Below the pieces are notes generated by a model. It was not told the DNA's origin. It saw only the letters and a list, made by a program, of their open reading frames with translations, and searched no databases. From positions 66,342,001-66,406,000 of the forward strand of contig CM059432.1 of NCBI GenBank assembly GCA_030390025.1: a DNA stretch of 64,000 bases, given 5' to 3'. The position numbers and the translations under genes were made by a program. This document shows positions 1,650-39,844 of the stretch, one piece after another. This DNA comes from Squalus acanthias. Its lineage: Eukaryota. Each line of letters opens with the position of its first letter. Position 1 is the first letter of the stretch.

Positions 1650-3093
1650 GGGCTGGCTTTTCCCTGAGGAGGCGGGATGGTGGCGGGAGAGCTGGTTGGC
1701 GGGTTCCGGTCCCGCTCCCGTCTGCAGCCGCTCTCTGAAATAGCATTTCTATAGATTGACCTTGTTAAGCCCGCCCTGCGGGGTTCCTGGCCAATTAACA
1801 GGAAGCACGTCTGATGACGTTATTTGATGACGCGTCATCAGCAGGTTTCCTTAAAGGGGCCACGGCCACATTGATTTTGACAGTTTGTGCTGTCAGTGTT
1901 CTGCAGCATTGAGGTGCTGCAAACACTGACAAGCACTGCACAAAGGTGCATGTCTGCACCCAGGCTCACGCATGACTCTCTCCATATGCCATTAGCCACC
2001 CCTCACACTCACCCTCATCCTACTGCAAGTATGCCAACTAACAACACACAAGGGTAGGCACTTGAGAGGTTTAGCCAATGTTCATGTGAAGTTTATGTTA
2101 ATGTGTTGTCATACATTGAAATCTATATTTTCAACACTTCACCTTATTGGACAGATCTGTGCGCACCTTGAGAAGTGTCTTAATGAGTTCCAGTGAATGT
2201 TGAGACATAACTCCCCCCCACCCCCAATTGTGATAAGTGTGAAAGGAATGGCTTGGACATTATAGGGATGCTTTATGGTGCTGGTGTGGGATGGTGTCAG
2301 CCTGGCACACCATGTGGCAGCCAGGGTTTACAGAGTCAAGTGAAGTAAATCTGGCCATGGTGATGCCATCGCTGGCCTCCTGGGCAGTAATGTTGTCAGG
2401 TGCTGATGCTCTGTGTCCTGTGCAGCATCAGGTGATGGCGGGGAGGTTGGTGATGTTGGTGTGCCTGGTGATGCTGGTGTGCCTGGTGATGTTGGTGTGC
2501 CTGGTGATGTTGGTGTTGGGGCTGTTCGTGGAGGGATTCAGAGGAGCAAGGTGTGATTTTTTCAAGGGCACCGATGTTGCTGGAATAGATGGCAGCTGCA
2601 GTAGAGATGACAGAAGCGATCTGTCAATGGTGAGAGAGGTTGTTCCAATGAGGAGCCACTTGGATTTAAACACTTGCAAGCCAAATAAATCTCTGTATGT
2701 CTTACAAATGCAGTAAGCAACAGTTTCTGAGCTCTGAAACTGAACAGCTGCAACATGGTATCCTTTATACCACTTTTGCAGCTGTCAGGATATCAGATAA
2801 ATCAAAGCAGACTCAACTCACACCAGGGTGAGCTGGCATGTTCCCCGAGCAGTGGGTAACCCATGGGGGAGCACGTGAAATTACAAGGTAGGCTCAAAAT
2901 AGCATTAAATTGGCTGTTAACAAGCCATTTAATGATCTAAATTGTCTCCCCCGCCGCTTGGTGTCGGGTCAGTTCTGGGAGACTAGTGTGGAGGCGGGTT
3001 GACAACAGGTTTCCTACCCACTGTCAATCATTGCTATTTTGACAGTGGACCCGCCTCTAAACCCACCCGCTGAGCGCCGGCAAAATCCAGCCC
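1650..3093 (+). mobile_element. Non-autonomous PIF/Harbinger derivative, family A copy 1
   Basis: TIRs GGGCTGGCTTTT / AAAATCCAGCCC with flanks TAA/GAA. Inverted homolog of 4224-5944 and 7307-9442. Start of the Myb exon on +, fused transposase N/C-terminal remnant on -. Confidence 0.8.
2448..2516. repeat. 18-bp tandem repeat (TGGTGATGYTGGTGTGCC) x~4
   Basis: Read directly. Encodes HQHHQA repeats on the minus strand, in the transposase N-terminal remnant. Confidence 0.9.
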
Positions 3094-4223: not shown

Positions 4224-5944
4224 GGGCTGGATTTTGCGGGGGTCAGCGGGCACAATCGGTGGCAAGTTGGGTGGGAAAGTGTTTTTTTTCCCAGCAGATC
4301 GGGACCCCGCTGCGAACATGCTGCCATGCGCCTTTACCAAATGTCGAGTCAGTCAGGGCTGAACAGACCCGACACGCAGCGGCGGGGGAGGCAATTAAAA
4401 TCATTAGTGGCTTGTTTACAGCCACTTATCAATGGTCTTTTCCCAGCTTTTTGGATTTGACAGGTCGCCCACCAGTTTGCCGCTGTGCCTAGACCTCGTC
4501 TGTGAAGCTGAGGCGGGAGAACACTTGCCATTGAATCAGCTGATGAGTTGACAGCTTCAAATGTCAAATCAAAGCTCCCAGCTGATTGAGAAATGTTCCC
4601 TTAACCATTAGCTTCACTAAGCCACATTTCCACTACAGATTCAGGATACTGCAAGTGCTTACACAAGTCTCCATCTAGTCTGACCTCATTGCCTCTCCCA
4701 CCATTGACAGATCACTTTTGTCATCTCTACTTCACCTGCCATCTATTCCATCAGCATGGGTGCCCTTGAAACTCTCTCACCTTGGTCCTCAGAAGCCCCA
4801 ATACCGGCATCACCAGGCACACCAGCAGCACCAGGGACCAGCAACACCAACAACAACATCAACTTTCTCCACAATCAATTGATGCTGCACAAGACACAGG
4901 GCATCAGCACCCGGCCACATTGCTGCCCAGGACGCCAGGGATGGCCTCAACATGGCCAGATTTACTTCCCTTGATGCTGTACACACTGGCTGCCACATGA
5001 TGCACCAGGTTGGCACCACCCCACACCAACACCATAAAGCATCCTTACAGTGCCCAAGCCATTCCTTTCACACTCATCACCACTTCCAAAGGTGCACACA
5101 AATGTGTCAAGAATGCAAAGTGTTGAAAATAAAGGTTTCAATGTTTGACAACACATTAACAGAAACTTCACATGAACATTGCATAAAACACCCAAGTGCC
5201 TACCCTTGTGTGTTGTTAGTTGGTATGATTGCACTCGGATGAGGGTGAGTGTAAAGGGTGGCTAGTGAGATGGGGATGTGATAATATAGATAGAGAGGGA
5301 TGGGTGGAGGTGCAAGGTAAGTTGGTGTGAGTAAGGTTGTGCAGGAGTAGGGTAGGGAAGGCAGAGTTATGGGGATGTGAAGAGAGGCACAGCAGGATGA
5401 GGTTGAGTGTGGCTTTGTACTAACGTTTCATGATCTACTGAGATCATTGAAATGTTTGCAGCACTGCACCCAGGTCCTCCTGACCACATCCCTGCTTATG
5501 CCCTCCTCTGCAATGTGCAACCAGGCTATGTTGATCTCCAAGGGAGGTCTGTTCCACCCATGGGAAGGGAAGAAGACCTCCCTGCATGCTGTGACTCCCT
5601 CCATAAGCATATGGAGGGAGTCCTGGGAGAGCCTGGGTGCAGCCGTGCACCTCTGTGCAGTGCTTGTCAATGTTTGCAACACCTCAATGCTGTAGAACTC
5701 TGACAGCACAAATGTCAAAGTAAATTTGGCCAAGGTCCCTTTAAGGAAACCGGCTGATGACGCGTCATCAAATGACCTCACCAGACCCGCTTCCTCTAGT
5801 TGGCTGGCAAACGCGCTGCGCGGGCTTAACAAGCCCAGTCTTGGGAAATTCATTTCAGAGGCCTGGATGGAGCCAGCAGCGGGGTTGGGACCCGCCACCA
5901 ACGTAGCCCACCACGGACCCGCCGAGGTTCGTAAAATCCAGCCC
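4224..5944 (-). mobile_element. Non-autonomous PIF/Harbinger derivative, family A copy 2
   Basis: Perfect 12-bp TIR GGGCTGGATTTT and perfect TSD GTA (4221-4223 / 5945-5947). Myb exon 1 on - (APRLSQDSLHMLMEGV..RTWVQCCKHFNDLSRS), transposase N+C remnant on +. Confidence 0.9.
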
Positions 5945-6149
5945 GTAGACTTGCTGTTCAGAACTGCAGAGTTGTGCGCAGCATATTGCATCACTGAGCC
6001 CAGGAGCGCAGCGTACAGCCTATACGTAAGGGAAGACACAAAAGCCCACAAAATCTCTCAAAATAAAGCCATGCCCAGCCCACAGAAACTTCTTTCAGTC
6101 TGTAGCATTGAAATTACCTGTGTTAGTTAAATGTAATTGCATTTTAATG

Positions 6150-6392
6150 TTTATAAAAACTTTTAAAACCTTTTAAAAACTTTTAAAGACTATTAAAAAC
6201 TTTTAAAGATGTTTATTTTAAACACTTTTAGAAACGTTTAAAGACTTGTAAAGACTATTAAAGACTTTTAAAGAGTTTTAAAATAATTTTAAAACTTTTA
6301 GAGACTTTTAAAGACTTTTAAAGACTATTAAAGACTTTTAAAGACTATTAAAGACTTATGAAAACTTTTAAATAATTTTAAAAACTTTTAAT
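6150..6392. repeat. AT-rich ~10-bp tandem repeat (AAGACTTTTA / AAGACTATTA / AAAACTTTTA)n
   Basis: Read directly, more than 20 degenerate units. Confidence 0.9.
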
Positions 6393-7306
6393 TAAACGGC
6401 AAATTGTTCCTTAATATTAAATTTAGATGTAAGTGTTTTAGAGAACATTCACTTACATATTTCTTTGTGACACAGTTACTGAACGCATTCAATGAAAATA
6501 GATAGAGAAGATAGAATTGTTTGCAAAATATGTAGAACTGCACAGCTACCAGAACTGGTACTTGGACTTATTTCATATATCAACATTTTGTTAAAATTAT
6601 GTAACAAAATACCAACATTATGTTGATTTTTGAAATGCAGTATCTGTGTAGAAACCCTTTGTTCTTTATTGAGTTTTGTACACAATCGTGTTTCACAGAC
6701 TATCAACATCTTTACCTTTAAATTTTCTTTATCTGCATTTCCCTGACTTAAATCTTAAAAGTTCCTATATTTTTATTTGAAAAATGAATTCTCAAATTCT
6801 TTTAAACGGAGCATGTATGTAACTTGCACCGCGAGAGTTAGTGAAAACATGTGAATGTACATCATTAATAATGTAAGATTTATCATTAGTGCAAACATTT
6901 TCGCCAACTTTCAAAGTGCACCCGCTGTCAGGAACCACAGCAGAAAATGCCTGCAGGTCTTCCGGGTTCCTTTCACAGTGAAACAGGCTCCTGCGCCTGC
7001 TTTTACTAAACATATCATTTTCATTGGTAATTGCTGGGCAGTTGGTGGGCAATTAGCCCAACTCTGCACCAGCAATTAGTATTTCCCCATCGTTGCAGAT
7101 CATCTGTCAAGGTATACCTTGACAGATCGCAAGTTCGGGATTTAACGCATGCGCAAGCGAAAATCCCGAACTTGCGGTCAATTTCAAAGCGGTATGATGA
7201 CGTACTCTCAGAGTGCATCATCATACCCACCACAAAATCTGCCCCACTAACATCATCAACACATTACACAAAGTAGGTGAATAAATTGGTTGCAATGTTT
7301 GAACTT

Positions 7307-9442
7307 GGGGAGAATTTTTTGGGAGCTCAGCGGGTGCATTCGGTGGCGGGTTGGGTGGGAAAATTTATTTTTCTGACAGTGAGTCGGGAACCCACTGTCA
7401 TCTCACTGCCACACTACTTTCCCAGATGTCGGGTCTGTCAGGGCTGAACAGACCCGATATTCAGTGGCGGGGAAGGCAATTTAGGTCATTATGACCTTGT
7501 TAACAGCCCATTAAACTGTATTTTGAGCTCACCGTACCATTTTATGAGGTCGCCCACGGGGTCCATGCTCCCGGGGATCATGTCAGGTAAGCAGGTCGGG
7601 AGTTGTGTTACCATGAAATGATCTCTTTACTTGACAGCTGCAAATGTGCTATATAAGCTCCCATCTCACAGCTGTTCACTTTCCAAGCTCAGAAGCTGTT
7701 GCTTACTGCATTTGGAAGACAGATTGAGCTTTATGCAGGTTTCAAGTGTTTGAAGCAAACTCTCTATCCAGTGTCATCTCATTGAAACAACCTCTCTCAC
7801 CATTGACAGATGGCTTCTGTCATCGCAACTTCACCTGCCATCTATTACATTAGCATCGGTGTCCTTGAAACTCTCTCAACTTGGGCCTCAGAATCCCACC
7901 ACGATCAGCCCCAACACCAGCAGCACCAGGCACACCAGCAGCACCAACAACAACACCAAACTTCTCCGCAATTAACTGATGCTGCACAGGACACAGGGCA
8001 TCAGCACCCGACCACATTGCTGCCCGGGACGCCAGGGATGGCCTCACCATGGCCAGATTTACTTCACTTGACGTTGTACACCTTGGCTGCCACATGATGT
8101 GCCAGGTTAGCACCACCCCACACCAACACCATAAAGCATCCCTACAATGCCCAAGCCATTCCTTTCATACTCATAACCATTGCGGTGGTTACTGTTATGT
8201 CTCACCATTCACTGCATTCACTAAGCCACTTTCAAAGGTGCACACGAATCTGTCCAAGAACACAAAAGACTGGATTTTGATACTGGGGCGGGTTGGGGTC
8301 GTGTTATCCACTTTTCGTGTTATCCACCCAACTGCAATTGGATGTGGGAGATTGATGCAATTTTGACCTAATTGGGCAATTGAGTTCCAGCATGTTGGAA
8401 CCCATGAACCAATAAGTGTTTTCAGTCTGAAAGTCGCCTCTGATGATGTCATCATTGCTGCTGCATTGAAGGTCTTCAGAGACTGCCTGGCCTTTGCTGT
8501 GAGAGGACCTGGATGCAAAATGAGCAGCAGCAGCCCTAAGTCTGCTCCCAGATATTTTTACACCAGAGAGAGAGAGAGAGACCGCCTTCTCCACGGGTCA
8601 ATGAAAATCCAGCCCAAAGTGTTCAAAATAAATGTTTCAATGTTTGATACCACATTAACAGAAACTTCACATGAACATTGGCTAAAACACACAAGTGCCT
8701 ACCCTTGTGTGTTGTTAGTTGGTATGATTGGACAAGGATGAGGGTGAGTGTGAGGGGTGGCTAGTGAGATGGGGAAATGATAATGTAGATAGAGAGCGAT
8801 GGTGGAGGTGCAAGGTAAGTTGGTGTGTGTAAGGATGTGCAGGAGTAGGGTAGGGAAGGCAGAGTGATGGGGTTGTGATGAGTGGCACAACATGATGAGG
8901 TTGAGTGTGGCTTTGCAGTAACATTTCGTGATCTACTGAGATCATTGAAAGGTTTGCGCCACTGCAGCCTGGTCCTCCTGACGACATCCCTGCTTGTGTC
9001 CTCCTGTGCAATGTGCAACCAGGCTGCGTTGATCTCTTGGGGAGGTCTCTTCCACCCATTGGAAGGGACGAACACCTCCCTGCATGCTGTGACTCCCTCC
9101 ATAAGCATATGGAGGGAGTCATGGGAGAGCCTGGGTGCAGCCCTGCACATCTGTGCAGTGTTTGTCAGTGTTTGCAGCACCTCAATGCTGTAGAACACTG
9201 ACAGCACTACTGTCTAAATTAATTTTTGCATGGTCCCTTTAAGGATATCGGCTGATGACGCGCCATCAAGTGATGTCATCAGACCCGCTTCCATCAATTG
9301 GTTGGCAAATGTGCTGGGCGGGCTTAACCAGCCCAATCAACGTAAAATCCTTCTACACAGCGGGCTGGAGCCAGCAGTGAGGTCGGGACCCGCCACCGAC
9401 CCCGGCCGCACTGGACCCGCCGAGGTAGGGGAAATCACGGCC
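7307..9442 (-). mobile_element. Non-autonomous PIF/Harbinger derivative, family A copy 3
   Basis: Colinear with 4224-5944, with degenerate TIRs. Myb exon 1 in ORF 8761..9207 (APRLSHDSLHML..RKPFNDLSRS). Interrupted by MITE 8267-8615. Confidence 0.85.
8267..8615. mobile_element. Harbinger MITE (family B, short form)
   Basis: TIR AGACTGGATTTT / AAAATCCAGCCC, TSD AAA. The empty site is visible in copy 2 at ~5113-5125. Internally deleted, inverted version of 50257-50969. Confidence 0.9.
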
Positions 9443-11435: not shown

Positions 11436-13598
11436 GGGCTAGAAATTCATCTGATGAGCCCCACTCCGTAGCACCATGAAATGGCGATAAAATGACAGCG
11501 GCCACTCTTTTGCCAACTGCCCGCGGCGGCTGCCATATTCACGTCCCCCTTTGCCCTCCCAGTAACTAGTAGCACTCTGAAAAAAAAAATGGCAGCGTGG
11601 TGATGTCAATCGGCGTGCAACACCAACTTACCATCACTACGCCGAACTTTAACCCTAGCTGGGTGCTAAGCATACCAGGTTAACCTGGCGTGCAAGTAGG
11701 CTGACAGTGGCGCTGTCTGCACCTCTTAAAGGGACACATCTTTCTGGTAATATTTGATTTACGGTTTTGGACTGGATTTTTTTTGATTTTATTGAACTCG
11801 TGGCTTGCTACAATAGATGTGAAAAGCTTTTTAAGTGTGTAGAGAGTGCTGTTGGATGCTTGCAAGGGCTCGGATGGTAAATGAAGGCCTTTGAGAAGAC
11901 AGAACATGCTGCAAATGCTCAGCAGGTCATGCAATTTCCATGGCAAGAAAAATAGAGTTCACGTCTCAGGCCAAGATGCTGCCTGACCAGCTGAGTATTT
12001 CCAGCATTTTATGCTGTCATTTCACATTTGCAGCATCTGCTTGCAGAGGGTAGAGGAGGGCACAGAAGTGGAGGAAGCAGAAGAGGCTGAAGCAGAAGAG
12101 GAGGAAGCAGAAAGAAGGGTGCATCCCAAATAGCCCCTTTGTGGCCGGGATATCCGAGATGTAATCATCTGCCTGTGGTCCCAGGGACAACAACCCCAAT
12201 TCCCCTTTCAATATTTGACCCACACCTGCCTTCCATCTGTTGCTGACCATCACAACATCCTCTTGGCGTTAATGCTGAAATAAAAGCCACCACAAAGCAA
12301 ACTTTCCAATCCACCTATATACGTCTAGCCATCCAACGTGACATCAAGAAATCAACTCATCACCCTATGCATTCTCTTAGTGACTGTCCTCTGTGTGCCT
12401 TTGCCTACCCTTCTGACGTCACAAAGTGCTACCCCAGGGGCTGCAGCATGGCTGGTGGAAGGCTGCTGACTTTCAGTGGTGGACACTGCAAACGGCCTTG
12501 CTGGTTGACCTTGAGGAGCTGGTGGCTGGGAGTGTCAAATCAATCTTCTTCTGTTCTTGTTCTTCTTCACTCTCCTCCCCCTCTTCTTGGTCACCCATTG
12601 GCTGGGCAGGCTGCATTTCATGGGTGTGTGAAATGAGGAAGGCATGAGGTACATGCCAGAAGGATGATAATGTATGAGGATACCAGCATCTTGTATCCTT
12701 TCAGCCCCGCTGCTGGCCAAGGGCTCAGCCATGCCCCTGCCAAGAATGGCCTGCACTGTCTCCTCCAAGGGAGTGAGGTGAGGCTTGGAATGGGACGTGT
12801 GCCTTGTGATTGGTGCAGATTGTTGGTAGTTGAGTGTTTGGGGGGTCGTGCATTGAGCAGTGTGTGACACTGGTGGTGCAGTTGGTAGGAGACGACTTTG
12901 AAGATCTATTCACTGACCTTGACCAGTGGTCTGAGGTCATGAAGCTTCTTTGGGCACTGGAGCCAGATGGTGGGGGCATCACTGCTGGCAGTGACGGCCT
13001 CGGTGATGTACTCTCACATCCTCCTTTCTGGAGGGCCTCCTGGCCCATGTGGGTAGAGGACCTGTCTTACAGTGTTGACCCCCTGCACAAAGCTGGAGCG
13101 CTGTGTGCGAGACCCTGGGTGTCCCTTCCCTGGCTTGCTGAGCCATTTGTGTTAGTGCTGAGGCAGTTTTCCCATGTTTTGAAGTTAGGAAGGTAATTCA
13201 GCTTTAAGAGCTGAATATTCACAATTGGAACTTTTTAATGTTAAATATTTTTTTAAAAGGCAGAAAGGGCTGAAACTGCATTGTTTCACTTCAATTTAAT
13301 TTGTAGTGCTTCAGAGTGCATGGCCCCTTTATTTCACAGAATTCTTCATTACCCACAATTCCTTGCGAGCTCCACAGCCTCACTTCCAGAGGCTGTGCGA
13401 AGCTCCAACATTGCTCCTGCACAGGAACTTTGTCTCGGATGCCTCCAGCAACGCCACCAGGACGCGTTGCATGGCAGGTATGCATTGCGCCAACAATCTT
13501 CATCCCCCCCAGACCAATTTTTCTCCGTTAGCGTTGCGGCTATTTTCAGCGGCCCTTAACTCACCGGCAACTTTGCTGGCTAACTGGAATTTCACCCC
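11436..13598 (-). mobile_element. Old deleted PIF/Harbinger element
   Basis: TIR-like ends GGGCTAGAAATT / AATTTCACCCC. Degenerate Myb exon on - (..QCPKKLHDLRPLVK|GTCAGT) and an acidic transposase-tail-like remnant on + at ~12050-12120. Confidence 0.6.
11897..12040. mobile_element. Degenerate inverted Penelope-type pseudo-LTR fragment
   Basis: Two inverted arms similar to 42390-42537 and 48500-48548 (GCTGCCTGACC..CTGAGTATTTCCAGCATTTT). Confidence 0.55.
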
Positions 13599-15749: not shown

Positions 15750-16682
15750 ATATTGGAATACAGACTAGAATTTCTAAATTTGCCGATGACCCCAAACTTG
15801 GGGGTGTGGCAAATAGTGATGATGATACCAATCAACTGCAACAGGACATAGAAAGGCTAGCAGAATGGACAGACAAGTGGCAGATGGAATTTAATACAGA
15901 GAAGTGTGGGGTTTTGCATTTTGGCAGAAGGAACAGGGAGAGGCAATATACACTTAATGGCACAGTTTTACAGACTGTGCAGGGACAGAGGGACCTGGGA
16001 GCTAATGTGCATAGGTCTCTGAAGGTGGCAGGACATATTGAGAGAATGGTTAACAAAGCACATGGGATCTTGGGCTTCATAACTAGAGGTATTGAGTACA
16101 AAAGTAGAGAAGATATGGTGAACCTTTATAAAGCACTGGTTAGGCCACAACTGGAGTATTGCGTCCAGTTCTCGTCACCACATTTTAGGAAGGATGTGAA
16201 GGCCCTTGAGAGGGTGCAGAGGAGCTTTACCAGAATGGTTCCGGGGATGGGGGATCTTAGCTACAAGAACAGGTTGGAGAAGCTGGATTTGTTTTCATTA
16301 GAGCAAAGGAGGTTGAGGAGTGATTTGATAGAGGTGTACAAGATTATGACGGGTTTGGATAGGCTAGACAGGGAAAGGCTGTTCCCACTAGTTGATGGTA
16401 CAAGGACTAGGGGACACAAATTTAAGGTTTTGGGCAAGAGATACGGGGGGATGTGAGGAAAAACCTTTGTACGCAGCGAGTGGTGATAATCTGGAATTTG
16501 CTGCCGTCGGAAGTGGTGGAAGCGGAGACACTCAATGCTTTCAAGGGGAGACTGGAAAGGCACTTGAGGGAAATAAATTTGCAGGGCTACGGGGATAGAG
16601 TGGGGGAATGGGACTGACTGGATTGCTCGACAAAGAGCCGGCACGGACTTGATGAACCGAATGGCCTCCTTTATGACTCTAT
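15750..16682 (+). mobile_element. 5'-truncated CR1
   Basis: ORF 15611..16456 from ISKFADD onward. Tail (TATGACTC)n is interrupted by two Harbinger insertions. Confidence 0.9.
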
Positions 16683-19600
16683 GGGCTCGATTTTGCCAGG
16701 CCCGAGGAGGTGGGATTGGAGGCGTGTGAAGTGATAAAAACGCAAAAACTGACGGGCAGCTCCGATCCCACCTCCATCCCGCCTCCGAGCAATTTTTCCA
16801 GAATCGGGGTTTCAGACCCCATTTCCATCCCGCCTCCAAGAGGCGGGATAGGCCCTTAAGGCCCTTAACAACCAGTTAAGCCTCCATAATCCCATTTTGA
16901 GAGGCCTTTCTGATTTTAACACATTTACCCCATCCTACACGCCTCCTCTGGAACATGCCGATTAAACCTGTCGGCCTCACAAGTGGATTGCTTACTAACA
17001 GCTGCAGCTCCACCATTAAAAAGGAGTTTTCACCAATGATCATTTGCAGGTGGCAGAACTTTGTTGTCTCAGGTCTGGGGGAACTTTTAGCAGGCATACT
17101 CATTGTTGTGGAAGTTTGGAGCCTGACACCCATCTCCAGTGTGACCTCCTGGGAAAGCCCTCTCCCCACCTTGACTGAGCGCGTCCTCAACTGAGGCATG
17201 TACCAGAAGCATGGAACCATTTATTTCCTTTCCTCCTGGACATCAGATTTGGATGAAGACCAGCCGCGGCAAAAGCAGAACCATGAACAACAGCAGCACC
17301 AACAGCAGCACCAACAACAGGAGCGCCAAGCTGCTGCTCACCCACCTGAAGCTACACAGGCCAGAAGGCGCCAGCGCACGACCACATTGCTGCCCGGGAT
17401 GCAAGGGACGCACTCATGTTGGCCAGATTTGCTTAGCCTGCACAATCAAACACTTTTGCCTCGCACCTTCTTACCAGAGCATCGACAATGGACAAGAACC
17501 TACGGATTCCTATCACTCTGACCACCATACTGACAATTGCAAGTCGCCCTAAGCCCTCAATGTAGAAGCCCCATTTGCGAGATGACACAGGCCAGAATTT
17601 CAACAGTTTGCCATCAAATCTGTTTATCATATTACAAGGATGGCTTGTCAAAAAACAATACAACATAACACCCAAGTGACTACCCTTGTGACTACTTGTG
17701 CTTTAACTTCCTCTTACACGTGCTCCTACGTGGTGCTTCCCCTGTGCTTCAGCAGATGTGGAGGCCCCTTGCTCACTTTCTTGCTGCTCCTGTCTCGACA
17801 CCTTTGGCGGGCGTCCTCTGGGGTTGCGAGCCTGTAATGGCTCGGCAACAGTCTGCTGCTCCTACGGCTGTGCAGGGGCTGAGACGCCCATCTCAATTGG
17901 GTGGGGACTCTGGTGGGGCTCTGACCGAGGGCTTTGCAGTGGTATGGTCGTGTGAGCGCTTGGAGAGGAACCCCCACTTCCTTGTTGTCTGCCACCAACA
18001 TCCCTCTCATGGGTCAGCCCCACTTCAGAGCTAGCAAGTGGCTTGACAGCACCTTGCAGCACTTCGGGGGGCCATGAGGAACCGTTTCTGCACTGGAAGT
18101 CCTACTCTAGAGGACTTCCATGAAGGTCTGGTTTCTGTGCTCAATAGCTGACCATCGCTCCTCAAGAGATGTCAGTCTATTCTTAACAATGACCATGTTT
18201 TCAACACTCTGGCGACTTAGCTCCTCCATGGCCGTAGCTATCGTCTCCTCTACCGTACCATCCTTTCCACGGAGGTTGCCATCCTTTCCATGGTGATGCG
18301 TTCATGCGCCAATGCCTCCACAAAGGCTCTGCTCATGTTCGCGATGGACTCCTCCATTCACTCCACACTCGCAGTGACCCTGGAGACAAAACCTGCCAGA
18401 GACTCCTGCACCTGTTCCTGGAGTTCCAGCACCGCTCTCCTTCTGGATGGACCTGGAGGCACAGGGTCAACATGCAGCTGAGCCGAGCTGGCAGAGTCCT
18501 GCGCCCTCCAATGAGGACTCTCCACTGCTGTCCCTGTCTCCACCGTCTGCTGATGCTCACTTGTGAGCTGTGATACACCAGGTGACAACACTACTCTATC
18601 TCGCGAAGGTCCCACCGAGGTTTGAGTGTCTGTGCTGGTGCTGTGTGCGCTGAATTCTGCTGATGCTGCGCCCTCAGAGGTTGCAGCTTCCTCTGAGGAG
18701 TTTTGAAGCTCAGGTTCTTCCTCCTGGACAGTGGGGACGGGGGCTGCCGATGGTCCTGTGGGGGAGTAAAGGAAAGAGTTAGAGATGTGAGGTAAAGGTT
18801 GCATGCACATTGAATTGTGCAGATGATCATAAGTCAATCTGTTAGAGCATCAGAATCATTATCAGTCACTCATGCAATGTCAATGAGAGAGATGCCATAC
18901 TATTCTGTCACCAGCTTGCTGTGATGCGCCCGTCTGTCCATCCCCCACTTGCGAATCGTCCTCAACACCGGCGATTTCCATGGCCGCCTACTCCGAGGTA
19001 GTGAGCTGGGCTACTGAGGGTGGCCCTCCTCCTGTCCTTGCTCTTTCCCTCTTATTGTGGACTCACTTTTCCTGCAATGAGGGACACAAGTGGAGTTTGA
19101 GTGAGAATGAAGGAGTGAGTGTAGAGAATCCATAGCATAGATGCTTAGAAGGAGACAAAGGGCCCTCCCTGTGTGTTGTAAGTTGTTGTCATTGCATCAC
19201 AGTGATAGGGAGTATGAGGGTTGCATGGTCGAATAGTTAAGTGAATGTGACCATAGTGAGAGAGGGAATGGGTAAGGGTGCAGGGATGTAATTGTCAAGT
19301 GGGATGTGGAGGAAAAGGTTGGCAAAGCAGAGTGCTGGTGTGGAAAGGCGATGGGGATCAGATTGAGGGCGATGGGAAAGTCATAATCACTTTTCCTGTG
19401 CAGAGAAGGTCATGAAACCTCTTCCTGCATTGCAGCCAGGTTCGGTGGCACATAGAGATTGAGTTGTCCTCCTGGACCACTTGCAGCCACACAGCTTTAG
19501 TCTGCTGGGGAGGCTTTTTCCTCCCTGAGGAAGGGAAGAGCACCTCCTTATTTGATCTTGCTCCCTCCACCAGAGCTTGGAGGGAGGCCTCATCGAACCT

Positions 19601-19910
19601 TGGAACACATTTTGGCCTACTAGTGGACATAGTTGCTAAATGAAGCGATCACAACAATGGGCATAAAGTTTAACGGCTCCAGAAGAAGCAAGGCTGCTTG
19701 CAGGCCTTAAATCCAGCAGCATTGATGACGTCATCAGAGGCGACTTTCTGTATGAAAAGGCTCATTGGGCCAGGGGTTTCCACACGCTGGAAATCAAGTG
19801 CCCAATCAGGGCAAACTCGCACTTTTTTCCCACTTCACATCGGAGTCGGGGTCCTGACACGAAAACCACCTGACACGCCCCAGCCCACCCGCAATGGCAA
19901 AATCGAGCCC
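16683..19910 (-). mobile_element. Myb-only non-autonomous PIF/Harbinger element (family B, long form)
   Basis: Perfect 15-bp TIR GGGCTCGATTTTGCC, TSD TAT. Complete 3-exon Myb gene on -. The transposase is reduced to a Q-rich N-terminus fused to C-terminal ..HIAARDARDALMLARFA* on +. Confidence 0.9.
17692..19630 (-). pseudogene. Harbinger Myb/SANT-like DNA-binding protein gene, 3 exons (19630-19391, 19071-18912, 18755-~17692), disabled
   Basis: Exon 1 MSTSRPKCVPRFDEASLQALV..RTWLQCRKRFHDLLCTGK. Exon 2 EK*VHNKRERARTGGGPP. GT-AG sites with phases 0 and 1. Several stops and frameshifts. Confidence 0.8.
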
Positions 19911-19921
19911 TATGACTCTAT

Positions 19922-20764
19922 GGTCTGGATTTTCTCAATGGGGAGTTTTTGGAGGCGGGAGTCCCAGTTGTCAGGTTTTAGTCCCACCTCCATCGACTTG
20001 TGGCCAACCCACACTATTTTCCCTTGATTGACCTTGTTAAGCCCGCCCAGTGGGCTTAGCAGGCTAATTAAGGGAAAGCCGGTTACAGGTGACATCAGCA
20101 AGTGACGTTTCATCTGTCAAGAGCATTTGACAGATGAAATGTCAGCGTTTGACGGCTCTGTGAAGCTGTCAAACACTGACAATCTGTCCTCTAACTTGAG
20201 CCCTTCCACTCAGGCTCAGTTAGAGAGCGTTCCTGGGCAGAAAGCAGAAGGCTGCAGCTTTTGATAGTTCAGCGGCCATTCTGCTTTCTGTGCGGTGAGA
20301 TGAGGGCTTCCCAAGACCTGAAGGGTTGAAGCCTGCAGGAAGAAGTAAAGGTAAGTAAAACTTGTTAAAACACTTTAGTATCACCTCACACACTTACCAC
20401 TGCACACATGTACCCATCACTCACCTGCATACCGGACATCTCGGCCCCTCCGACCCCCACAGACCAACGGCCCGCCTCGCTGACCCTGGTGAGGTTCGGA
20501 GCCATCGGGTAGCCCACACTTCAGGGCTGAAAATAGGGATTATCCAAAAAACTGCATGTTAACTACCTGTTAAGAGGCAGTTAATTGGCACTAATCACCT
20601 TCCCGCCTCGAGGAGACGGGACCCGGCGCGGGTCGGGTACCCGCTTCCTGGGAAGATGGCACGGAGGCGGGTTGGGGGCGGGATGGGTATCCGCTCCCAG
20701 ATTCTACCATTTTCCCAGCAGTCCCGCCTCCTTTCCCTCCTCTCCAGGGCTGGCAAAATCGCCC
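19922..20764. mobile_element. Harbinger MITE (family C)
   Basis: TIR GGTCTGGATTTT / AAAATCGCCC, TSD TAT, subterminal GGAGGCGGG repeats. Inverted homolog of 24648-25400. Confidence 0.85.
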
Positions 20765-28853: not shown

Positions 28854-29730
28854 TATTTTAATCATACTTTGGATTTGACAATATTTACTTAAAGCTATAT
28901 TTAGGGACTGTAATGGTGCAGTGGGTTACAACTTCCAAAGCTCATATGCCTGCAATTTCCATGAGGGCTCTCCCAATCATCCACCATAACTTCCATGGAA
29001 GATCATGGAAAACCCGGAGAAACAGGGTAAACTGTGATTGGGAGAAGCTCTGCGGAAATTCTATTCCATATTGTACTGGACTCTTAAAGACCGTCAAACT
29101 GAGAAGATATTCATTCAATCTTTCTGGAATGGATTCACATTCTGGCCTGAAAAGAGAAAGGGCAATGTTCTAATGCAATTTGCCTCAGAGTGCCACTTCC
29201 CTACTTCCAATGCTAAATCCTTTAAAGTATTTTGAATTTTACTGGACCAAAAGAGTGGAGGAGAGATTTCCCTGGATCTGCACCGAGATGCACTGGATTA
29301 CCTGGGTGAAGTGAATATCAGAAAATTGGGCATCTCCTTTATAGGTGAGCACTCTGATCCACCCAAAGTTTTTTGGGGAAAAATTCGGTATTGTCCATTT
29401 TGGGGCGCGAATATTGGCCGGGTGCAAATTTTAGCGCCCGGCGCAAATTATCGCCATCGACCGCGAAATTCGTCTTCAGCGCCCCTGGAGGTGATTGGAG
29501 CCCTAAATCAAGCGCTACACACTTCTCTTAGGGCGCTAATGTCGGGGAACAAGGCGCTACCTCAGAGCGCTACTCAAGCTCAGGCGATGTCAATTATCTT
29601 GTACTCAGACAGACTGGCGTTTTCCAGTTTTTAAAGGGGAGGGTCCATCATGCTGCACAGCAACACCCTGATCATTGCAGCATTTGACCTCGGCCTGCAA
29701 GCAGGTAAAAATCTTCAGCAAAGATTCATA

Positions 29731-31597
29731 ATGGCTACTCAGAGGCCCAGTGAGAGAGCTCGCCGGTTTAGCGACCAGGCATTGGTGGCTCTGTTTGGCG
29801 CTGTGGAATGCCGACGGGCAGTGCTGTTTCCAGAGATTGTCAGGAGGCCATTGCCCTGGGAGTTTACAAGGGTGTCGAGGGAGGTTGCCCAGCACGTTTC
29901 ATCCAGGAGCCTGGTCAAAAGGACTCATACGCAGTGCCGCAAGAAGTTCAATGACCTCACTCGGGTGGTCAGGGTGAGCACATGCTTGGAAAACCTCTAC
30001 ATCCCACCATCTCAACAGAGTGTAAATTCCCAAATCCCCAACACTCACCCAACAAATATGCCCATCTAATAAAAGTCACACACCTTGCACACATTAACGG
30101 CTATTCAACTATGGTAGGCACATGTGCCAAACACATGACTGCATACTCACTCACACGCTGTCCTTTTTCTTGCAGGCCAAGCTTTCACATAACCAGAGGG
30201 AGCAACAACGCACAGGAGGAGGACAGATGGAGCTGCACCCCCTCACACAACTGGAGGAGCGAGTCCACAGACTCATCGCCACTCATGTCATCGGTGCTGT
30301 GGCCATTGCAGAGGTCGACCCCCTTGGGGACGTTCATCAGCTTTATCTCTCTCATACCACTTCCCCCTCACAACACCAGCCTTTTACACTTTCCATCTAA
30401 CTATACTGTCTCCATACCTTGCTCCCTTCCTGACCCCCTGCCCTCGCGTTAAAGCCACCCTTGTACCTTCCTGCTTTCAGATAGTGAGCCACCATCTGAC
30501 CAGCCTGTCCCTCAGCCTCCAAGTGGCAGCGACGCGGCAGAGGAGGAGGAAGACGAAGCCAGCGCCTCACCGCCTGCGTCTCCCGAGGGCGAGACATCTG
30601 ACACTGGGGCCACGCGTTCACTGGAGGGGAGCAGGGGGTTTGCATCTGATCTGGGTGAAGCTCTGGGACCCAGCGGGCTGCAGCAACGCCATGGGGGAAG
30701 GAAAGCTTGGGGGCCATCTCCCCAGAGGGTGAGTGTGCGCACGAGTTCTGCTGCACTGGACTCGGATGAGGACCTCGATATAGCGGCGATGAATTCTCAG
30801 GCAATGAACATGCATACGGAGCTCATGGGTGCAATGACAAGGGTGCCCGACAGCATGGATGCACTGGCTAGGAGCGTGGAGGAGTCCGCCGCCAGCACAG
30901 CTGTCATCTGTGCGCAAACCCTTGAACCCAGCCTTGCCTCGTTGCAGAGGATGGTTGAATTGCAGGGAGACCGTGGGGACCCAGAGCCCATGCTGCGTGT
31001 AATGGGTGAGGTGGCAGGATCCATTGCAGCACAGGCTGATGCAACGCAATGGCTTAGTGCTGCAATCGAGTCATTGGCTGGTGCCATCCAGTCTCAGACT
31101 GCTCTCATGCAGTCTCAGATTGATGTCACGCAAGCGCTGACTGCTGCCATCGTCGCTGGGTCGCCCACAGTCCACCGGGGATCTCACGGTGCTGCAACAG
31201 ACCAGCAATCTGTGCTCGAGCAGATTGCTCCGGATGCTGAGGTTCTGCCCCGTGGGAGTGCCAGTGTGTCGGTCGAGCAGGAAGGTGCTGTCCTCTCTCA
31301 GGATAACAACATTCCTGCTCCCACCACTGCCACTCACCATTGCACTTGCCACAGCCTGTAACCCAGCCAGCCCAGACTGCTGCCGCCCATGCAGAGTTGG
31401 TGCAGTCTGCAGCCGGGCCCTCCAGGCCCAGAGCTGGTCGAGGGCGTCCTTCAAGGCCATCTGCAGTTTCTGGATCCAACATTCAGCAGCCTTCCACCAG
31501 CCTTGCTGCAGCCACTGGGGCCACATTATGGAGGAGCAGTAGGGTGAGAAGGGGGGAAGTGCGAAGAGAAGGGAGATCATCCTCGAATGGCGAATAA
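29731..31597 (+). pseudogene. H1 Myb/SANT-like gene, 3 exons (29731-29973, 30176-~30331, 30481-31597), frameshifted, exon-2 donor deleted
   Basis: MATQRPSERARRFSDQALVAL..RTHTQCRKKFNDLTRVVR|GTGAGC, then TTGCAG|AKLSHNQREQQRTGGG, then TTTCAG| acidic region, Ala/Gln heptad region and RGRP motif. Confidence 0.85.
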
Positions 31598-31905
31598 CTA
31601 AAAATTCTCAAACAAATGGGGGGAATATTTATCCCAAAGTTGGATGTTTATGTTAATATATTGTTCACGCTGTTAACGCTTATCTCGGTGTGGTAAGAAC
31701 CAGTTTTCTTAGTTAATGAATTGTTGTGTTTGTTTGTTATTGATTGTTCTTAATAAGACACAGCTTGTCAGAAAAATATTTTTTTAAATTTAAACTTGAC
31801 AACTTTGCTCATTTTATTCATTGGAGCTTTGCCCGGTAATAGGGGCTTCGGGATGGTTGTAAAGATGTGTTTGTTCATCCCAAAAGCCATCTTCTCTGTC
31901 ATTCA

Positions 31906-33072
31906 TCAGAAGCGGTGACTTATCAGGCATTCATGAATGGCCCTTGCAGACGCAACATTGAGCGCCTCCCTCCCACGTTGGTGCTGCTGATCCTCCTCTT
32001 CATCCTCTTCCTCCTCCTCTTCTCCCTCTTCCTCATCCTGAGGTGGTGCACCAATCCCTGGTGGCAATGGCTGGGTCCTCAGAATGGCGAGGTTGTGAAG
32101 CATGCGGCACACAACAATGAAAAGTGAGACTCGCTCGGGAGAGTACTGCAGAGCTCCTCCAGAGTGGTCAAGACACCGTAACCATTGCTCCAGCACGCCG
32201 ATCGTCTGCTCAATGAGGTTCCTGGTGGCGCTATGGCTCTCATTGTATGCAAGCTCAGCAGGAGTGTTGCGGTTATGGAGCGGTGTCATCAGCCAGGTGC
32301 AGAGTGGATAACCCTTGTCCCTGAGGAACCAGCCACGAGGGTGATACGGTGGTTGGAACAGGTTTGGGACACCAGTCTGGCACAGGATGAATGATTCGTG
32401 GCTGCTGCCAGGATAGCGGGCATTGACGGCGAGGATGCGCTGTCTGTGGTCACAAACCAACTGGACGTTCAGAGAGTGGAAGCCCTTGCAGTTACGGAAA
32501 ACCTCTGTGTTTTCATGAGGTGCCCACAATGCCACATGCGAGCAGTCAATGGCGCCCTGAACCATGGGGAAGCCCGCTATCCTAGCGAAGCCACATGCAC
32601 GTTCACGCTGTTTGTCTCGGGTCATGGGGAAAGAAATGTACTCCCTTCTCCTTTGTTATAGAGCATTTCTGACCTCCTGGATGCAACAATGGACGTCGAA
32701 CTGGGAGATATTCGCAATATCCCCAGTTGAAGCCTGGAAGGAGCCGCTGGCGTAGAAACTGAGAGCCACCGTCACCTTCACTGCCACCGACAGAGATGTC
32801 CTGGTCCTGAGCTGAGGCTGGAGCTTTGGTTGCAGGAGGTGGCAGAGCTCAGTGACCACCTCCTTGCTGAAGCGCAGCCTTTTAGAACACTGTTCCTCGG
32901 ACAAATGAATTAAGGAGAATTGCTCCCGGAATACCCTGGGAGGGTAAGGTCTCCTGTGCAGAGGCCTGTTGGCCCTCCTCCCTCTGGCCACATTTGCCAC
33001 TCTCTCTCTGCGCCACTGCTGCCTTTGAAGGTGAAGCTGGAGGACGACGCCCTGAGTTAGTGCAGCCCCCAT
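31906..33072 (-). pseudogene. H1 Harbinger DDE transposase (HARBI1-like), one in-frame TAA at 32656-32658
   Basis: ORFs 32656..33072 and 31906..32625 are in the same frame. Motifs GAIDCSHV, GSSHE (HD in H2), RDKGYP, RNLIEQTIG and an acidic tail. Confidence 0.92.
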
Positions 33073-33589
33073 TTAATCTTCTAAATATGGTAGTGATAAA
33101 GCTGAGAGAAATGGGAACCTGAAAAGTGTTGGTGAGGACTAAAACGCCTTGTAGGACAGCATTAACTGTCTCCAGACGCCTCTCTCCCTCTCTCAACCTG
33201 CGTATGCAGAATATTTTGCCGACAGGAAAAAGCAGAAAGCGCACGCCTTTAAATAGCACTTCCCCAGCTCCAGCTGACTGCAAAACGTCCCCCTCTACCT
33301 TTCATTCCGAGTAGCAGGTGCTAAGGCAGGGGGCGAGAATTAATTTCCGGTCCGGGGCGCTACCGGGGCGTTGCGTGCTTCGATGACGTCACAATCTCCG
33401 GGCGCAGGAGATCGTGGCGGTAGTGTTTAGCGCTACCGCAAAGCGCCAAGTCAATTTCACGGGTGCCGCTAAAATCGCCACGCTCGGGCGGTAAGTCGTT
33501 AGCGCCCCCTGAACATGCTAATGGGAGGCGCTAACCAACCGAATTTTCCCCCCTTGGACTCCAAATCGTGTCCATATACACAAATCCTT

Positions 33590-34250: not shown

Positions 34251-34612
34251 GGGGGAGAAATTCAGTATTGCCCCGTTTGGGGCGCGATTATCAGGCCGGG
34301 TGCAAAGTTTAGCGCCTAGCGCTAATTATCGCCTCCGACTGCAAACTTGGCTTTTATCGCCCCTGGAGGTGATTGGAACACTAAACCAGGCGCTGCACAC
34401 CTGTCTTAAGGCACAAAGGCAGAGGAGCGAGGCGCTAACTCAGAGCGCGGGCGCAGCAGCAGGTGATGTCAGTTAGCGATGGAACACAGACACACTGGCG
34501 CCGACAGTTCTTAAAGGGGAGGGTCGATCTTGCTCTCCAGCCACACCCTGCTCATTGGAGCCTTGAATCTCGGCCTGGAGAGACCTGTGACTACATTTTC
34601 CAGCCAAGGACT

Positions 34613-36377
34613 ATGGAGAGAGTGAGAGAATGAGCTCAGCGCTTCAGCGAGCAGCCTTGGATGCTCTGGTTGGTGCGGTGGAGCGCAGAAGGTCTATACT
34701 CTACCCTGAGAGTGGCAGGAGGCCTTTGCCGCACGAGTACAGAAGAGTGTGGAGGGAGGTGGCTCAGCACATCTCCTCCAGGAGCATGGTGCCCAGGACT
34801 CATACTCAATGTCGCAAAAGGTTCAACGACCTGTCTCGGGTCATCAGGGTGAGTGTTTTTTTTTCAATATCTCTCCATCCCTCCATCTCAACCTCACTCT
34901 ATGGCCAGAGGGTCTTAAAACCCAATGCCCAACACTCATCCAACACCTTTGGCCCTCTCATGAAACACACATGCGCATTCCACACTTTGCATACAGTAAG
35001 GGCTATTCAACTATGGGAGGCACATCAGGCAAGACCATGGCTGCATACATGAAGGGCTAGTCAATTATGGGAGGCACATCAGGCAAGACCATGGCTGTAT
35101 ATTTACTCAGATGCTGTCCTTTCTCTTGCAGGCCAAGCTATCTCATAATAGGAGACAGCAGCCTCAGCTGCAACCCCTCAGCAATCTTGAGGCGCACATC
35201 CACAGGATTGTGGCAAGCCAGGGTGATCGGTCTCGTCACCCCTGGAGAGGCCGACCCCGTTCTGGACAGCAATGGTAAGGTCATCAGCTTTCTCTCCTCT
35301 CTCATTCCACTTGTCTCTCACAACACCAGCCTTTGACACTTTCAATCCAACTTACTAAATCGCTGCACTCCTTCCTCCCTTACTGCCCCCCTGTCCTCAC
35401 GCTAAAGCCACTCTTGTACCTCCCTGCTTTCAGATGGTGATTCACCAGCTGAGGAGACGGGCCCTCAAGCTGCCAGTGGGAGTGAAGCTGCAGGCGAGGA
35501 GGAAGAAGAAGCCGGAGCATCAGTGCCACCCTCTCCCGAGGAAGCCCATGCTCACACTGGGAACACGTCTTCCCTGAAGGGGAGCAGGGGGGAAGGTTCT
35601 GATGAGGGTGAAGCTCCAGGACCCAGCGGGCTCCAGCAGCGCGATGGGGGTAGGGAAGCTCGGGGGCCTTCTCACCGGAGGAAGAGTATGCCAGCGAGTC
35701 CTGCTGCACTGGACGCAGAGGAGGAGCGGCTCATCGCTGAAATGAACACCCAGGCGGTGGACATGCACACTCAGCTCATGGGTGCAGTGGGAAGGGTGCC
35801 CGAATGCATTGATGCACTGGCAAGGAGTGTGGAGCACTTCGCTGTAGCACAGGCGGATGCCACGCAAATGTTTAGTGCTGCAATTCAGTCACTGGCTGCC
35901 GTGACCCCATCTCTGACTGCTCTCATGCAGACTCAGATTGAGGCCACGCAAGCACTGACTGCTGCCATCCTCGCTGGTTCGGACACATTTCCCCGGGGCT
36001 CTCACCAGCGCCGCAGCAGGCCAGCAATCTGTGCTCCAGCAGATTGCTTTGGATGCTGATGTGCTGCCCCGTGGGAGTGCCAGTGTGTCGGTCGAGCAGG
36101 GAGTTGCTGTCCTCTCACTTCCCCATTGCACTTGCCACCGCCTGTAGCCCAGACTGCTGCCGCCCATGCAGAGTTGGTGCAGTCTGCAGCCGGGCCCTCC
36201 AGGCCCAGAGCTGGTCGAGGCTGTCCTTCAAGGGCATCTGCAGTCTCAGGTTCTGACAATCAGCAGCCTTCCACCTGCCTTGCTGCAGCCACTGGGGCCC
36301 CATTATGGAGGAGCAGTAGGGTGGGAAGGGGGGAAGTGCGCAAGGGAAGGAGATCACTCTCGAAGGGCAAAAAGTAG
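34613..36377 (+). pseudogene. H2 Myb/SANT-like gene, 3 exons (34613-34848, 35132-35274, 35434-36377), disabled
   Basis: MERVRE*AQRFSE, frameshift, ALDALVGAVERRR..QCRKRFNDLSRVIR|GTGAGT. AATG|GTAAGG donor and TTTCAG| acceptor. Internal deletions relative to H1. Confidence 0.85.
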
Positions 36378-36615
36378 GAGGTGTGACGAAATGTTGGTCA
36401 ATTTTTTATTAAAGGCCGAAGTTCGTGTTCAAACTTTTGTTTAGTGTTTTGGACATTATTTCCAGGTTGTGAGAAGCAGTTATGTTAATGAATGATTGTT
36501 TGTGTTTGTTTCTATTAGTTTGTCATGAAGAAATGACACACACAGAGTTTGTAAAATAAAAAAGTTTTTGTATTCAAAATGTACAGGTTTGGCCTTTGGA
36601 CTCCTCAGTAGGGGT

Positions 36616-37766
36616 CTAGGAGCGGCTTGTTATCAGCCGTTGACGGACGGCCCTTGCAGTTTCAACATTGTGGGCCTCGCTCCCACCTTGGTGCTGCTGC
36701 TGATCATCCTCCTCCTCTTCCTCCTCCTCCTCTGGTGGTGCTCCAAGGCCTGGTGGCATTGGCTGGGTCCTGAAGATTGCCAGGTTATGCAACATGCAGC
36801 ACACAACTATGAAGAGGGAGACTCGCTCAGGCGAGTACTGCAGGGCTCCTCCTGAGTGATCCAGACAGTGGAACCATTGCTTGAGCACGCCGATCGTCTG
36901 CTCAACGATGTTCCTGGTGGTGAGATGGCTCTCGTTGTACCGCAGCTCAGCAGGGGTGTTGGGGTTACGGAGCGGTGTCATCAGCCAGGTGCACAGTGGA
37001 TAACCCTTGTCCCTGAGGAGCCAACCACTTGGCTGATGCGGTGCCTGGAAAAGTTCTGGCACAGCAGTCTGGCACAGGATGAAAGCATCGTGGCTGCTGC
37101 CAGGATAGCGGGCATTGACAGCGAGTATCAGCTGTCTGTGGTCACAGACGAACTGGAAGTTTAAGGAGTGGAACCCCTTGCGGTTTCGGAAAACCTCTGC
37201 ATTCTCATGCGGTGCCCGCAATGCCACATGCGTGCAGTCAATGGCGCCCTGCACCATGGGGAAGCCCGCTATCCTCGCAAAGCCCAATGTGCGTTCATGC
37301 TGTTTGGCCCGGGTCATCGGGAAACAGATGTACTGCCGTCTCTTTTTATAGAGGGCATTTGTGACCTGACGGATACAGCAATGGACCGCAAACTGGGAGA
37401 TATTGGCGATGTCCCCAGTAGCTGCTTGAAAAGAGCCGGTGGCATAAAAGTTCAGAGCCACTGTGACCTTCACTGCCACCGATAGAGACGTCCTGGTCCT
37501 CAGTAGAGGCTGCAGATCTGGCTGCAGCAGGTGGCAGAGCTCAGTGACTACCTCCCTGCTGAAGCGCAGCCTTCGCAAACACTGCTCCTCAGACAAATTA
37601 ATGTGGGAGAATTGTTGCCGATATACCCTGGGAGGGTAAGGTCTCCTGTACAGAGGCCTGTTGGCCCTCCTCTGTCTGGCCATGATTGGCACTCTCTCTC
37701 TCTGCGTCTCTATTGCCTCCAATTCTGCAGGCGCAGGACGACGCCCCGAATCAGTGCAGCCCCCAT
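36616..37766 (-). CDS. H2 Harbinger DDE transposase (HARBI1-like). Native ATG 37766 is disrupted, but the frame is open from ATG 37683 (355 aa)
   Basis: GAIDCTHV, FRNRKGFHSLN, GSSHDAF, RDKGYP, YNESHLTTRNIVEQTIGVLK and CCMLHNLA all lie in one uninterrupted frame. Confidence 0.85.
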
Positions 37767-38305
37767 AGTCTCTTGGTAATCGAAGGTCAAATCCAAAAGT
37801 ACCTGCAAAGTGATGCTCAGTAGCCAAAACTACTTCACACAGCGTTGACTCTATGCAGAAGTCTTTCCTTCTCTCTCTCAGAATCTCTCTCTCTGTCAGA
37901 ATGAGTGGTGCAAAAATGGCTACCACTGAAAAAGCCAGGAAGAGGCCGCCTTTAAATAGCGCCCCCCGCCCCCCCCCCCCCCCCGCCCCTCACCGACTGG
38001 GAAACGTTCCAGTCTACCTGTCGTTGCTTGCACCAGGCGGAAAGGAGGGGGGCACCACTCAATATCCGGTCCAGGGGCACCACAAGGGCGTTGCACGCTC
38101 GACTGACGTCACGATCTGCGGGCGCAGGAGATCGGGGCGGTAATGTTTAGCATTGGCGCAAAATGTCTGGTCAATTTTGCGAGCAGGCGCAGACATCGCC
38201 GTGTCCGGGTGTTAGTTGCTTTGCACCCCATTAGTGCCTTCTTAAGGCGCTAATGGGGGGCGCAAACCAACCGAATTTTTCCCCCTATGATTCTATGATT
38301 CTATG

Positions 38306-39180
38306 CCAGCAGAATCCTTGCTACCCTTTGGAGCGTGTACTGTAGGATTCCACCAGAACTCTCTGGGCAGTGAAATCTGCTCTTCAAGACCTCGATGGAC
38401 CCCTCCAACACAAGCCTTATTGTTGAATGGGCCTGGTTGTCTCTGCCTGGTTTCTCAGTTGTTGCACTGGAGTCATAAGTCACATCAGTAGGGTGTATGC
38501 CTTGTCTCTCAGCATCCATCCATTCACATGGTTGTCCTCATGGAAGAGGGCAGGGATTTCCGAGAGTTGAGGAATAAATGCATTGTGGCAGCTGCCTGCA
38601 TGCTGGGTATTGACATGCGGCCTCAGACAGTCTGTACATTGAGTGAATGGAATCCCTTCCTGTTCACATCAGTCAAAGGCTAATCTGCAGTGCCACATGC
38701 ATGCCATTTATCACACGCTGGGGAAACCAGCTAGTTGATACAACCCCCTGGCTCTCTCCCTGTTTTGCATGGGTGTGATGCTGAAGTTGATTAACACTGT
38801 TGCTCTGTTGAACAGCACATCCATGACCTGCCAAATGGCTGCCCTGACTGTTCCCTGGCTGATGTTGCACAGATTGTCTGTGGTAACTTAGAATGGCCTG
38901 GAGCCAAAACGTTCATAGCCACAGTCAGAGCAGTTCTGATAGTGGAAGGCTGCAGATCTTCACATAGAAGGTTGTGCAATGGCAGAATTATACAATCTCA
39001 CGCTTCTAACACTCCTCCAAGAGGTCCTTGTATGGCCTATAAAGAGACTGGATAATACTACCTTGTGAGCTGGTGTCTTCTGCTGTGTTGCCTTATTTTC
39101 CTTGGCTCCACGTGGTGTTGTTCCTCCTCCTCTATAAAGATGGCATAGAGATGTATGGCCATGGGGGATGCAATACCATC
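38306..39180 (-). pseudogene. Older degenerate Harbinger transposase
   Basis: Fragments NQAHSTIRLVLEGSIEVLKSRFHC..SGGILQY and LCEDLQPSTIRTALTVAM, with many frameshifts. Confidence 0.75.
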
Positions 39181-39844
39181 TCCAGAGTCGTTCTGAGTGT
39201 GGGGGGTCATCAGAGGGGTTGGGGGTACAAAACGGTAGGGTGGGGTGGGACTGTAGCACTGTGCGAGGATAGGGGGGGAGTGCAAGTCTCAGTGAGCACA
39301 AAAATGGGTTGAGAAAAGGTTCTGTAGAGTCAGAAATCCACTAATACAGTTTGATGACTCTTTAAAGCTCTCAAACTTCTCACTTGCACTTGAAACTGGG
39401 GGAGCAACAGCACCTGTTTTACATGGGTGTAAGTTACCCAGAATGCAGTAGTAACATAAAAGCAGAAAATTCTTATCCACAGTGCCACAGGTGATGGGCA
39501 CATTTATGCCAATGAGCCCCACAGGACTTTGGTGTGTGGATAGTGAAAGCTGCTAAAAAGAATGAGGACATTCGTGTTTAGCAGTTAAATGGCACAAAAG
39601 AGGCAGATTTCGCTAAAATGCAAATTTCCACAAACATTTCGGTGCAATACGACCTAAGTGCTGAAGATAGCAAGGAAACTCAGAGCCAATTTCTCTAGCC
39701 TTTTACCAGTGTCAGTCCCTCATGAAGTATCATGTACAACATCGATGGCACCTGTATCACAGGTACATTACAGGTTTATAGGTTCAATCAGTGGTTTCCA
39801 CCTATGATTATATTCAGGGTGCATTATGGACTGGCAGCTGAATC

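Follow-up and report, generated by a model that had tools for sequence, protein, structure and literature searches.

The locus described here raises the question of whether a Harbinger transposon can lose its nuclease and still persist as a mobile lineage by carrying the gene for its DNA-binding protein. The element, which we call E1, lies in a 64,000-nucleotide stretch of Squalus acanthias DNA (GenBank assembly GCA_030390025.1, contig CM059432.1, positions 66,342,001 to 66,406,000 of the forward strand) that was analyzed as a whole and is referred to as the window. The features discussed below are collected in Table 1.

Table 1. E1, its family A relatives and two elements used for comparison, in window coordinates.
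Feature	Position	Strand	Remarks
E1 (Harbinger element under study)	16683..19910		window coordinates
Left target-site duplication TAT	16680..16682	.	in tandem 3' tail of CR1-type LINE fragment
Left TIR, 16 bp, perfect	16683..16698	+	
Transposase N-terminal remnant (MG-, Q/H-rich, basic end)	17211..17379	+	1-nt frameshift adjoining ATG in E1
Transposase C-terminal helix and stop	17380..17436	+	out of frame with N-terminal part; DDE core absent
Non-coding 23-nt motif directly past Myb stop	17668..17690	+	kept in E1 and 3/3 A copies
Myb gene exon 3	17703..18755	-	3 premature stops; 2 frameshifts, near 18250 and 18065
Myb gene exon 2	18912..19071	-	2 premature stops, at 19065 and 18990
Myb gene exon 1, Myb/SANT domain, open	19391..19630	-	PF13873 E 9.5e-10
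Right TIR, 16 bp, perfect	19895..19910	-	
Right target-site duplication TAT	19911..19913	.	
Family A copy	1650..3093	-	same join; without Myb exons 2-3 and most of exon 1
Family A copy	4224..5944	+	GTA duplication; same join; Myb exon 1 and part of intron 1 only
Family A copy (A7307)	7307..9441	+	worn ends; nested MITE near 8267-8615; same join; Myb exon 1 and part of intron 1 only
Two-gene Harbinger of another family (H2)	29375..33554	.	with DDE core; comparison
Second two-gene H2 Harbinger	34251..38285	.	DDE core (PF13359); comparison

E1 has the ends of a PIF/Harbinger element. As an earlier note on this DNA had reported, its terminal inverted repeats (TIRs) are perfect and it is flanked by a target-site duplication; the TIRs are short (16 bp), and TAT stands on both sides, though within a tandem repeat. 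The duplications that flank relatives of E1 read GTA, TCT, TTT and TAT. E1 also carries the expected Myb/SANT gene: exon 1 scores 38.7 bits against PF13873, above the cut-off of 21.7, and the gene is collinear with P0129, an intact 465-residue Heptranchias protein, over residues 1-80, 75-270 and 345-450. Of the DDE transposase gene that an autonomous element would have, a remnant of 226 nt is left, running from an ATG at 17211 to a TAG at 17436, and a profile search found no DDE core inside E1. E1, an adjoining MITE (19922-20764) and the H2 copy that ends at 38285 have a target preference in common: each is inserted at a TAT within the tandem 3' tail of a CR1-type LINE (window positions 16670-19925 and 38286-38305).

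The Myb gene had been described as a complete gene of three exons. All of the exons are indeed present, separated by two GT..AG introns of 319 and 156 nt, but the reading frame is broken by five premature stops and two frameshifts, consistent with the earlier view that this copy is disabled. E1 is a real element, a dead copy, and one of an already described kind, the DNA-binding-only Harbinger. When Myb exon 1 was searched against longer proteins with a word index, 43 candidates came up and none of them matched. Six Myb-domain proteins from rays, skates and sharks (P0123, P0124, P0128, P0131, P0134 and P0140) form one clade (97/86) and are about 40-50% identical to E1 exon 1; this clade may represent a Harbinger Myb gene that was domesticated in cartilaginous fish. 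The motif just past the Myb stop matches at four places in the window with at most four mismatches, the others being at 5188, 8687 and 2069. It is 96% identical between E1 and family A, where the background is about 50%, and its edge coincides with the start of loose ends in X15 and X16, two of the public sequencing runs considered below.

What remains of the transposase had been read as about 220 bp in which a Q-rich N-terminus runs directly into the last C-terminal codons. This reading holds at the measured length, with the join out of frame. Many shark HARBI1-like transposases, compared by eye, begin with MGA- and end in a helix of the form AR..R..LI..RF, and an N-terminus joined to a C-terminus fits the ends of these proteins. 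The extra base that restores the frame next to the remnant ATG is carried by other copies, seen as contigs in public runs. The exact breakpoint of the join cannot be fixed without an intact parent. Searches with the remnant itself gave no relatives: the H2 transposase has 428 relatives, and BLASTP of the remnant frames against the best 120 of them produced no match; none of the 108 candidates from a word-index search with an alignment of the helix reached E 10; a 24-letter DNA pattern of the helix had no matches in metagenomes and viral contigs; and a 19-letter pattern had 51 matches, none of which resembles E1 or a transposase. Two other readings of the remnant were rejected. The whole Q-rich stretch is not readily taken for a C-terminal tail, given that it is in frame with the MG- start and that, in 4/4 copies, a stop closes the helix frame about 11 codons upstream; nor does splicing offer a way into the helix frame, as the N-terminal remnant contains no GT (17211-17380).

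The same join had been noted in three diverged family A copies, near 4910, 8010 and 2390, and ungapped alignment places it in all three, at 4913, 8010 and 2397. The Myb gene has fared differently. Queries with Myb exons 2 and 3 had no match in any of the three copies, so that not every member keeps the full gene, and the distance from exon 1 to the 3' motif is 217-218 nt in the two A copies that keep exon 1 compared with 1701 nt in E1. One A copy (4224-5944) still has both TIRs and its GTA duplication. Compared with each other, the A copies are 87-94% identical in the interior and 47-66% in parts of the left arm. More broadly, their terminal arms (47-79%) are far more diverged than the interior that they share (about 80-94%), and the copies look mosaic, whether by arm swapping or by fast evolution of the ends.

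Eight elements in the window have the E1 type of TIR, namely E1, the three A copies and four MITEs, and none of the eight has a DDE core. The earlier note had called for a search for copies that combine these TIRs with a full core; among these window elements there is none. With a profile built from 27 shark HARBI1-like proteins, DDE cores were found in the window only at 31909-33072, 36622-37698 and 38307-39000. Other repeats in the window include a broken, old Harbinger transposase of a third type (38307-39200) and an AT-rich tandem array with a 10-nt period (6111-6420). A further Harbinger at 11436-13598, with H2-like ends, has a decayed Myb gene and a transposase consisting of an acidic tail and a C-terminal helix near 12050-12170; here core loss with retention of Myb recurs in a separate family.

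E1 is not a solitary derivative. Of 24 public sequencing runs listed, 20 contain part of E1 and 12 contain at least half of its words, across eight studies; one of the matching runs may be the source of the window itself. We aligned four runs to E1 (X1, X15, X16 and X22), from whose contigs copy number is not measurable. X1 yielded 111,638 contigs on E1, and there is depth over E1 in 30/30 bins in each of X1, X15 and X16; X22 yielded 60 partial reads only. These three runs hold a multi-copy, E1-like family with the core-less architecture of a solo-ORF element. In X16, a 615-nt contig (record 17) has a variant N-terminal part together with the helix and is core-less too. None of the six loose ends listed for X1 (2830 more exist) lies at the transposase join, and a parent may still be present. 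The proposal that a nuclease-less family kept transposing is therefore borne out, in the form of an amplified, Myb-retaining, core-less Harbinger family that needs its nuclease in trans.

The runs also bear on the state of the Myb gene in the family. Where E1 has the stop at 18990, all X15 and X16 depth and 98% of X1 depth have a sense codon. One contig of X15, one of X16 and 0.5% of X1 depth lack the frameshift near 18065. Consensuses of loose ends near 18258 and 18365 suggest that two further lesions are private to E1. Up to four of the seven E1 lesions thus look private; among the 40 of 703 variant rows listed, three of the five stops are not represented. The family may have an open Myb consensus, and this would agree with a role for the protein. 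Joins in X1 between 17342-17346 and 18402-18405 remove part of Myb exon 3; the derivative carrying them, about 2.2 kb long and seen in at least 15 contigs, loses the helix and the end of that exon. Two runs that we guessed to be RNA (no run is recorded as such) also extend over the introns, and of the 15 joints listed for them (187 more exist) none is a Myb-intron splice joint.

If the core had been lost before E1 and family A separated, as the earlier note held, the remnant should have evolved neutrally between them. The helix instead shows conservation of a coding type, in a small sample and in a segment that was chosen because it is conserved. Between E1 and A7307 it is 84% identical, with 4.5 synonymous differences over 12 sites and 3.5 replacement differences over 39 sites (pS 0.37, pN 0.09), compared with identities of 57% for intron 1, 49-53% for the arms and 50% for the 3' spacer; just past the helix stop, identity drops from 0.75 to 0.46. 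The probability of at most four replacement differences in 39 helix sites at the divergence of the intron is 9e-6. Within the helix alone, the Fisher test is not significant for any of the three A copies (p 0.076, 0.17 and 0.41). The other frames of the remnant have dN/dS values of 0.9-5 between E1 and A. Among the A copies, all of the 3-7 differences in the helix are replacements and none is synonymous, and dN/dS for Myb exon 1 is 1.18, such copy-to-copy values including decay after insertion. Between E1 and A, dN/dS for Myb exon 1 is 0.42-0.47, and dS between E1 and A7307 is about 1.2. In the tree of Myb domains, E1 and A form a weak clade (87/81, not starred), and the H2 Myb falls in a separate clade (96/93). 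Judged from the sequences, these patterns suggest that the E1 and A lineages split while the transposase was still coding; a core loss before the split is unsupported, because a long-dead fragment should not keep such conservation.

We consider it fairly probable that the E1 family is non-autonomous, core-less and deletion-derived, that it was moved by a cognate transposase in trans, and that its two parental families diverged with intact transposases. An internal deletion in the transposase gene of a high-copy shark PIF/Harbinger family would have left the Myb gene in place, creating a 'solo-ORF' variant, and E1 would have moved by cut-and-paste using transposase from a cognate autonomous element with identical ends. 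Elements of the E1 clade spread whether they had the whole of Myb, a part of it or none, as seen from the A copies, the MITEs and the X1 joins. Its own Myb would not have been needed, because relatives without Myb exons and MITEs with the same TIR spread too. The idea that core-less elements supply their own end-recognition protein is not supported for family A, which lacks Myb exons 2 and 3. Nor do families such as H2 look like the source of the nuclease, as had been suggested; H2 elements are unlikely partners of E1 because their TIRs differ and their Myb belongs to another clade. Two related autonomous families are the probable ancestors of E1 and family A, and the join that E1 and A share may have arisen twice at the same microhomology or been carried across by template switching. 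Against two origins, the join is in register and the Myb domains of E1 and A group together, so that a single deletion is the simpler count. No core-bearing element with E1 ends was found in the profile search of the window or in the protein and DNA searches, which were weak.

An unlikely alternative, although the best placed of the others, is a division of labor within one family of the kind proposed for Caenorhabditis inopinata, where core-less copies would be the main source of Myb, a few cognate DDE copies would provide the nuclease, and Myb would be under selection in the core-less branch. In three runs the family extends over the whole Myb gene, and the lesions which could be checked look private; both agree with such a division, and there is a precedent (PMC13668399), in which the trans supply is itself termed hypothetical. 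If the copies were passive derivatives of an intact parent, however, their consensus would equally be expected to be open; the variants listed do not include three of the five stops, and derivatives that lack parts of Myb have spread as well.

We are more doubtful that the core was lost once, long ago, and that the nuclease-less lineage then split into E1 and A, using its own end-binding protein and nucleases from families such as H2. The in-register join, the Myb clade of E1 and A, the constraint on Myb exon 1 and the failure of our weak searches to find a parent would all follow. But selection in intact parents explains the dN/dS of exon 1 equally well, the helix remnant is conserved in its own coding frame, Myb exons 2 and 3 are missing from A, and H2 ends are unlike those of E1. 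Moreover, in the parts of the teleost study covered, Harbinger Myb and transposase trees are congruent, which its authors link to co-evolution of both proteins (PMC9179366). We give slightly less credence still to a very old shark core-less lineage, derived from one deletion, persisting across species and diversified (Myb dS about 1.2), in which Myb would be selected, the mini-remnant would be functional, and the ends would be renewed by recombination so as to track the active autonomous family. It is very improbable that the remnant itself was selected after a single deletion, as a short peptide or as a DNA or RNA signal between two convergent 3' ends: its N-terminal frame is open from the ATG in many contigs (25-59% of depth in three runs), the nearby non-coding motif is also conserved between E1 and A, and the N-terminal end of the transposase is bound by Myb (PMC9392472, citing Sinzelle 2008), but conservation tracks the helix frame and not the ATG frame, there is no GT for splicing into the former, and the helix has only replacement differences among the A copies.

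In zebrafish, Harbinger3_DR has two genes, and binding of the ends and import of the transposase are the work of its Myb-like protein (PMC9392472 and PMC9179366, citing Sinzelle 2008); both proteins are required for transposition, with Myb binding the ends and the N-terminus of the transposase (PMC9392472, citing Sinzelle 2008). The two-gene plan is alike, but Harbinger3_DR is autonomous and E1 has no DDE core. Ozma of Aedes, where several non-autonomous families arose from one parent through deletions at 6-8-bp microhomologies, offers a possible route to repeated joins, but it is a Tc1/mariner element and its breakpoints differ from family to family (PMC3814204). In the portions of the teleost study covered, elephant shark yielded no Harbinger and teleosts yielded no element with a single ORF (PMC9179366), and in the literature covered, which does not extend to Repbase or most subscription journals, nothing was found on Harbinger families of cartilaginous fish.

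The earlier note had presented a core-less, adaptor-carrying Harbinger as a novelty, but DNA-binding-only Harbingers have been published (PMC8437027, PMC13668399). Harbinger-Snek of sea kraits has multi-copy solo-ORF variants, with 452 intact DNA-binding-only copies in Laticauda colubrina and six in L. laticaudata, which are ascribed to large deletions and are possibly non-autonomous (PMC8437027). Like the E1 family, these are multi-copy vertebrate Harbingers that encode the DNA-binding protein only. Unlike E1, Harbinger-Snek is a young family whose full parent is present (269 intact copies; PMC8437027); the searches for E1 turned up no parent, E1 itself has decayed, and deeply diverged lineages have one join in common. 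In C. inopinata, the MADF-only elements Harbinger-1M_cIno and Harbinger-2M_cIno have expanded and transposed, with DDE activity inferred to act in trans, and a second MADF-only family has no DDE source (PMC13668399). These elements embody the same concept as the nuclease-less lineage first proposed for E1, but they are from a nematode, are currently active and have one intact cognate DDE gene identified, and no common N/C-terminal remnant is mentioned in the abstract and the covered parts of the Results and Discussion (PMC13668399). The E1 family extends DNA-binding-only Harbingers to cartilaginous fish, and what sets it apart is one join in deeply diverged lineages whose flanks, from sequence comparison, still look protein-constrained. 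If Myb were shown to have been under selection after the loss of the core, the family would offer the first long-term evidence for the maintenance of one half of a two-gene transposon as a mobile unit, a point left hypothetical in the covered parts of the nematode paper (PMC13668399).
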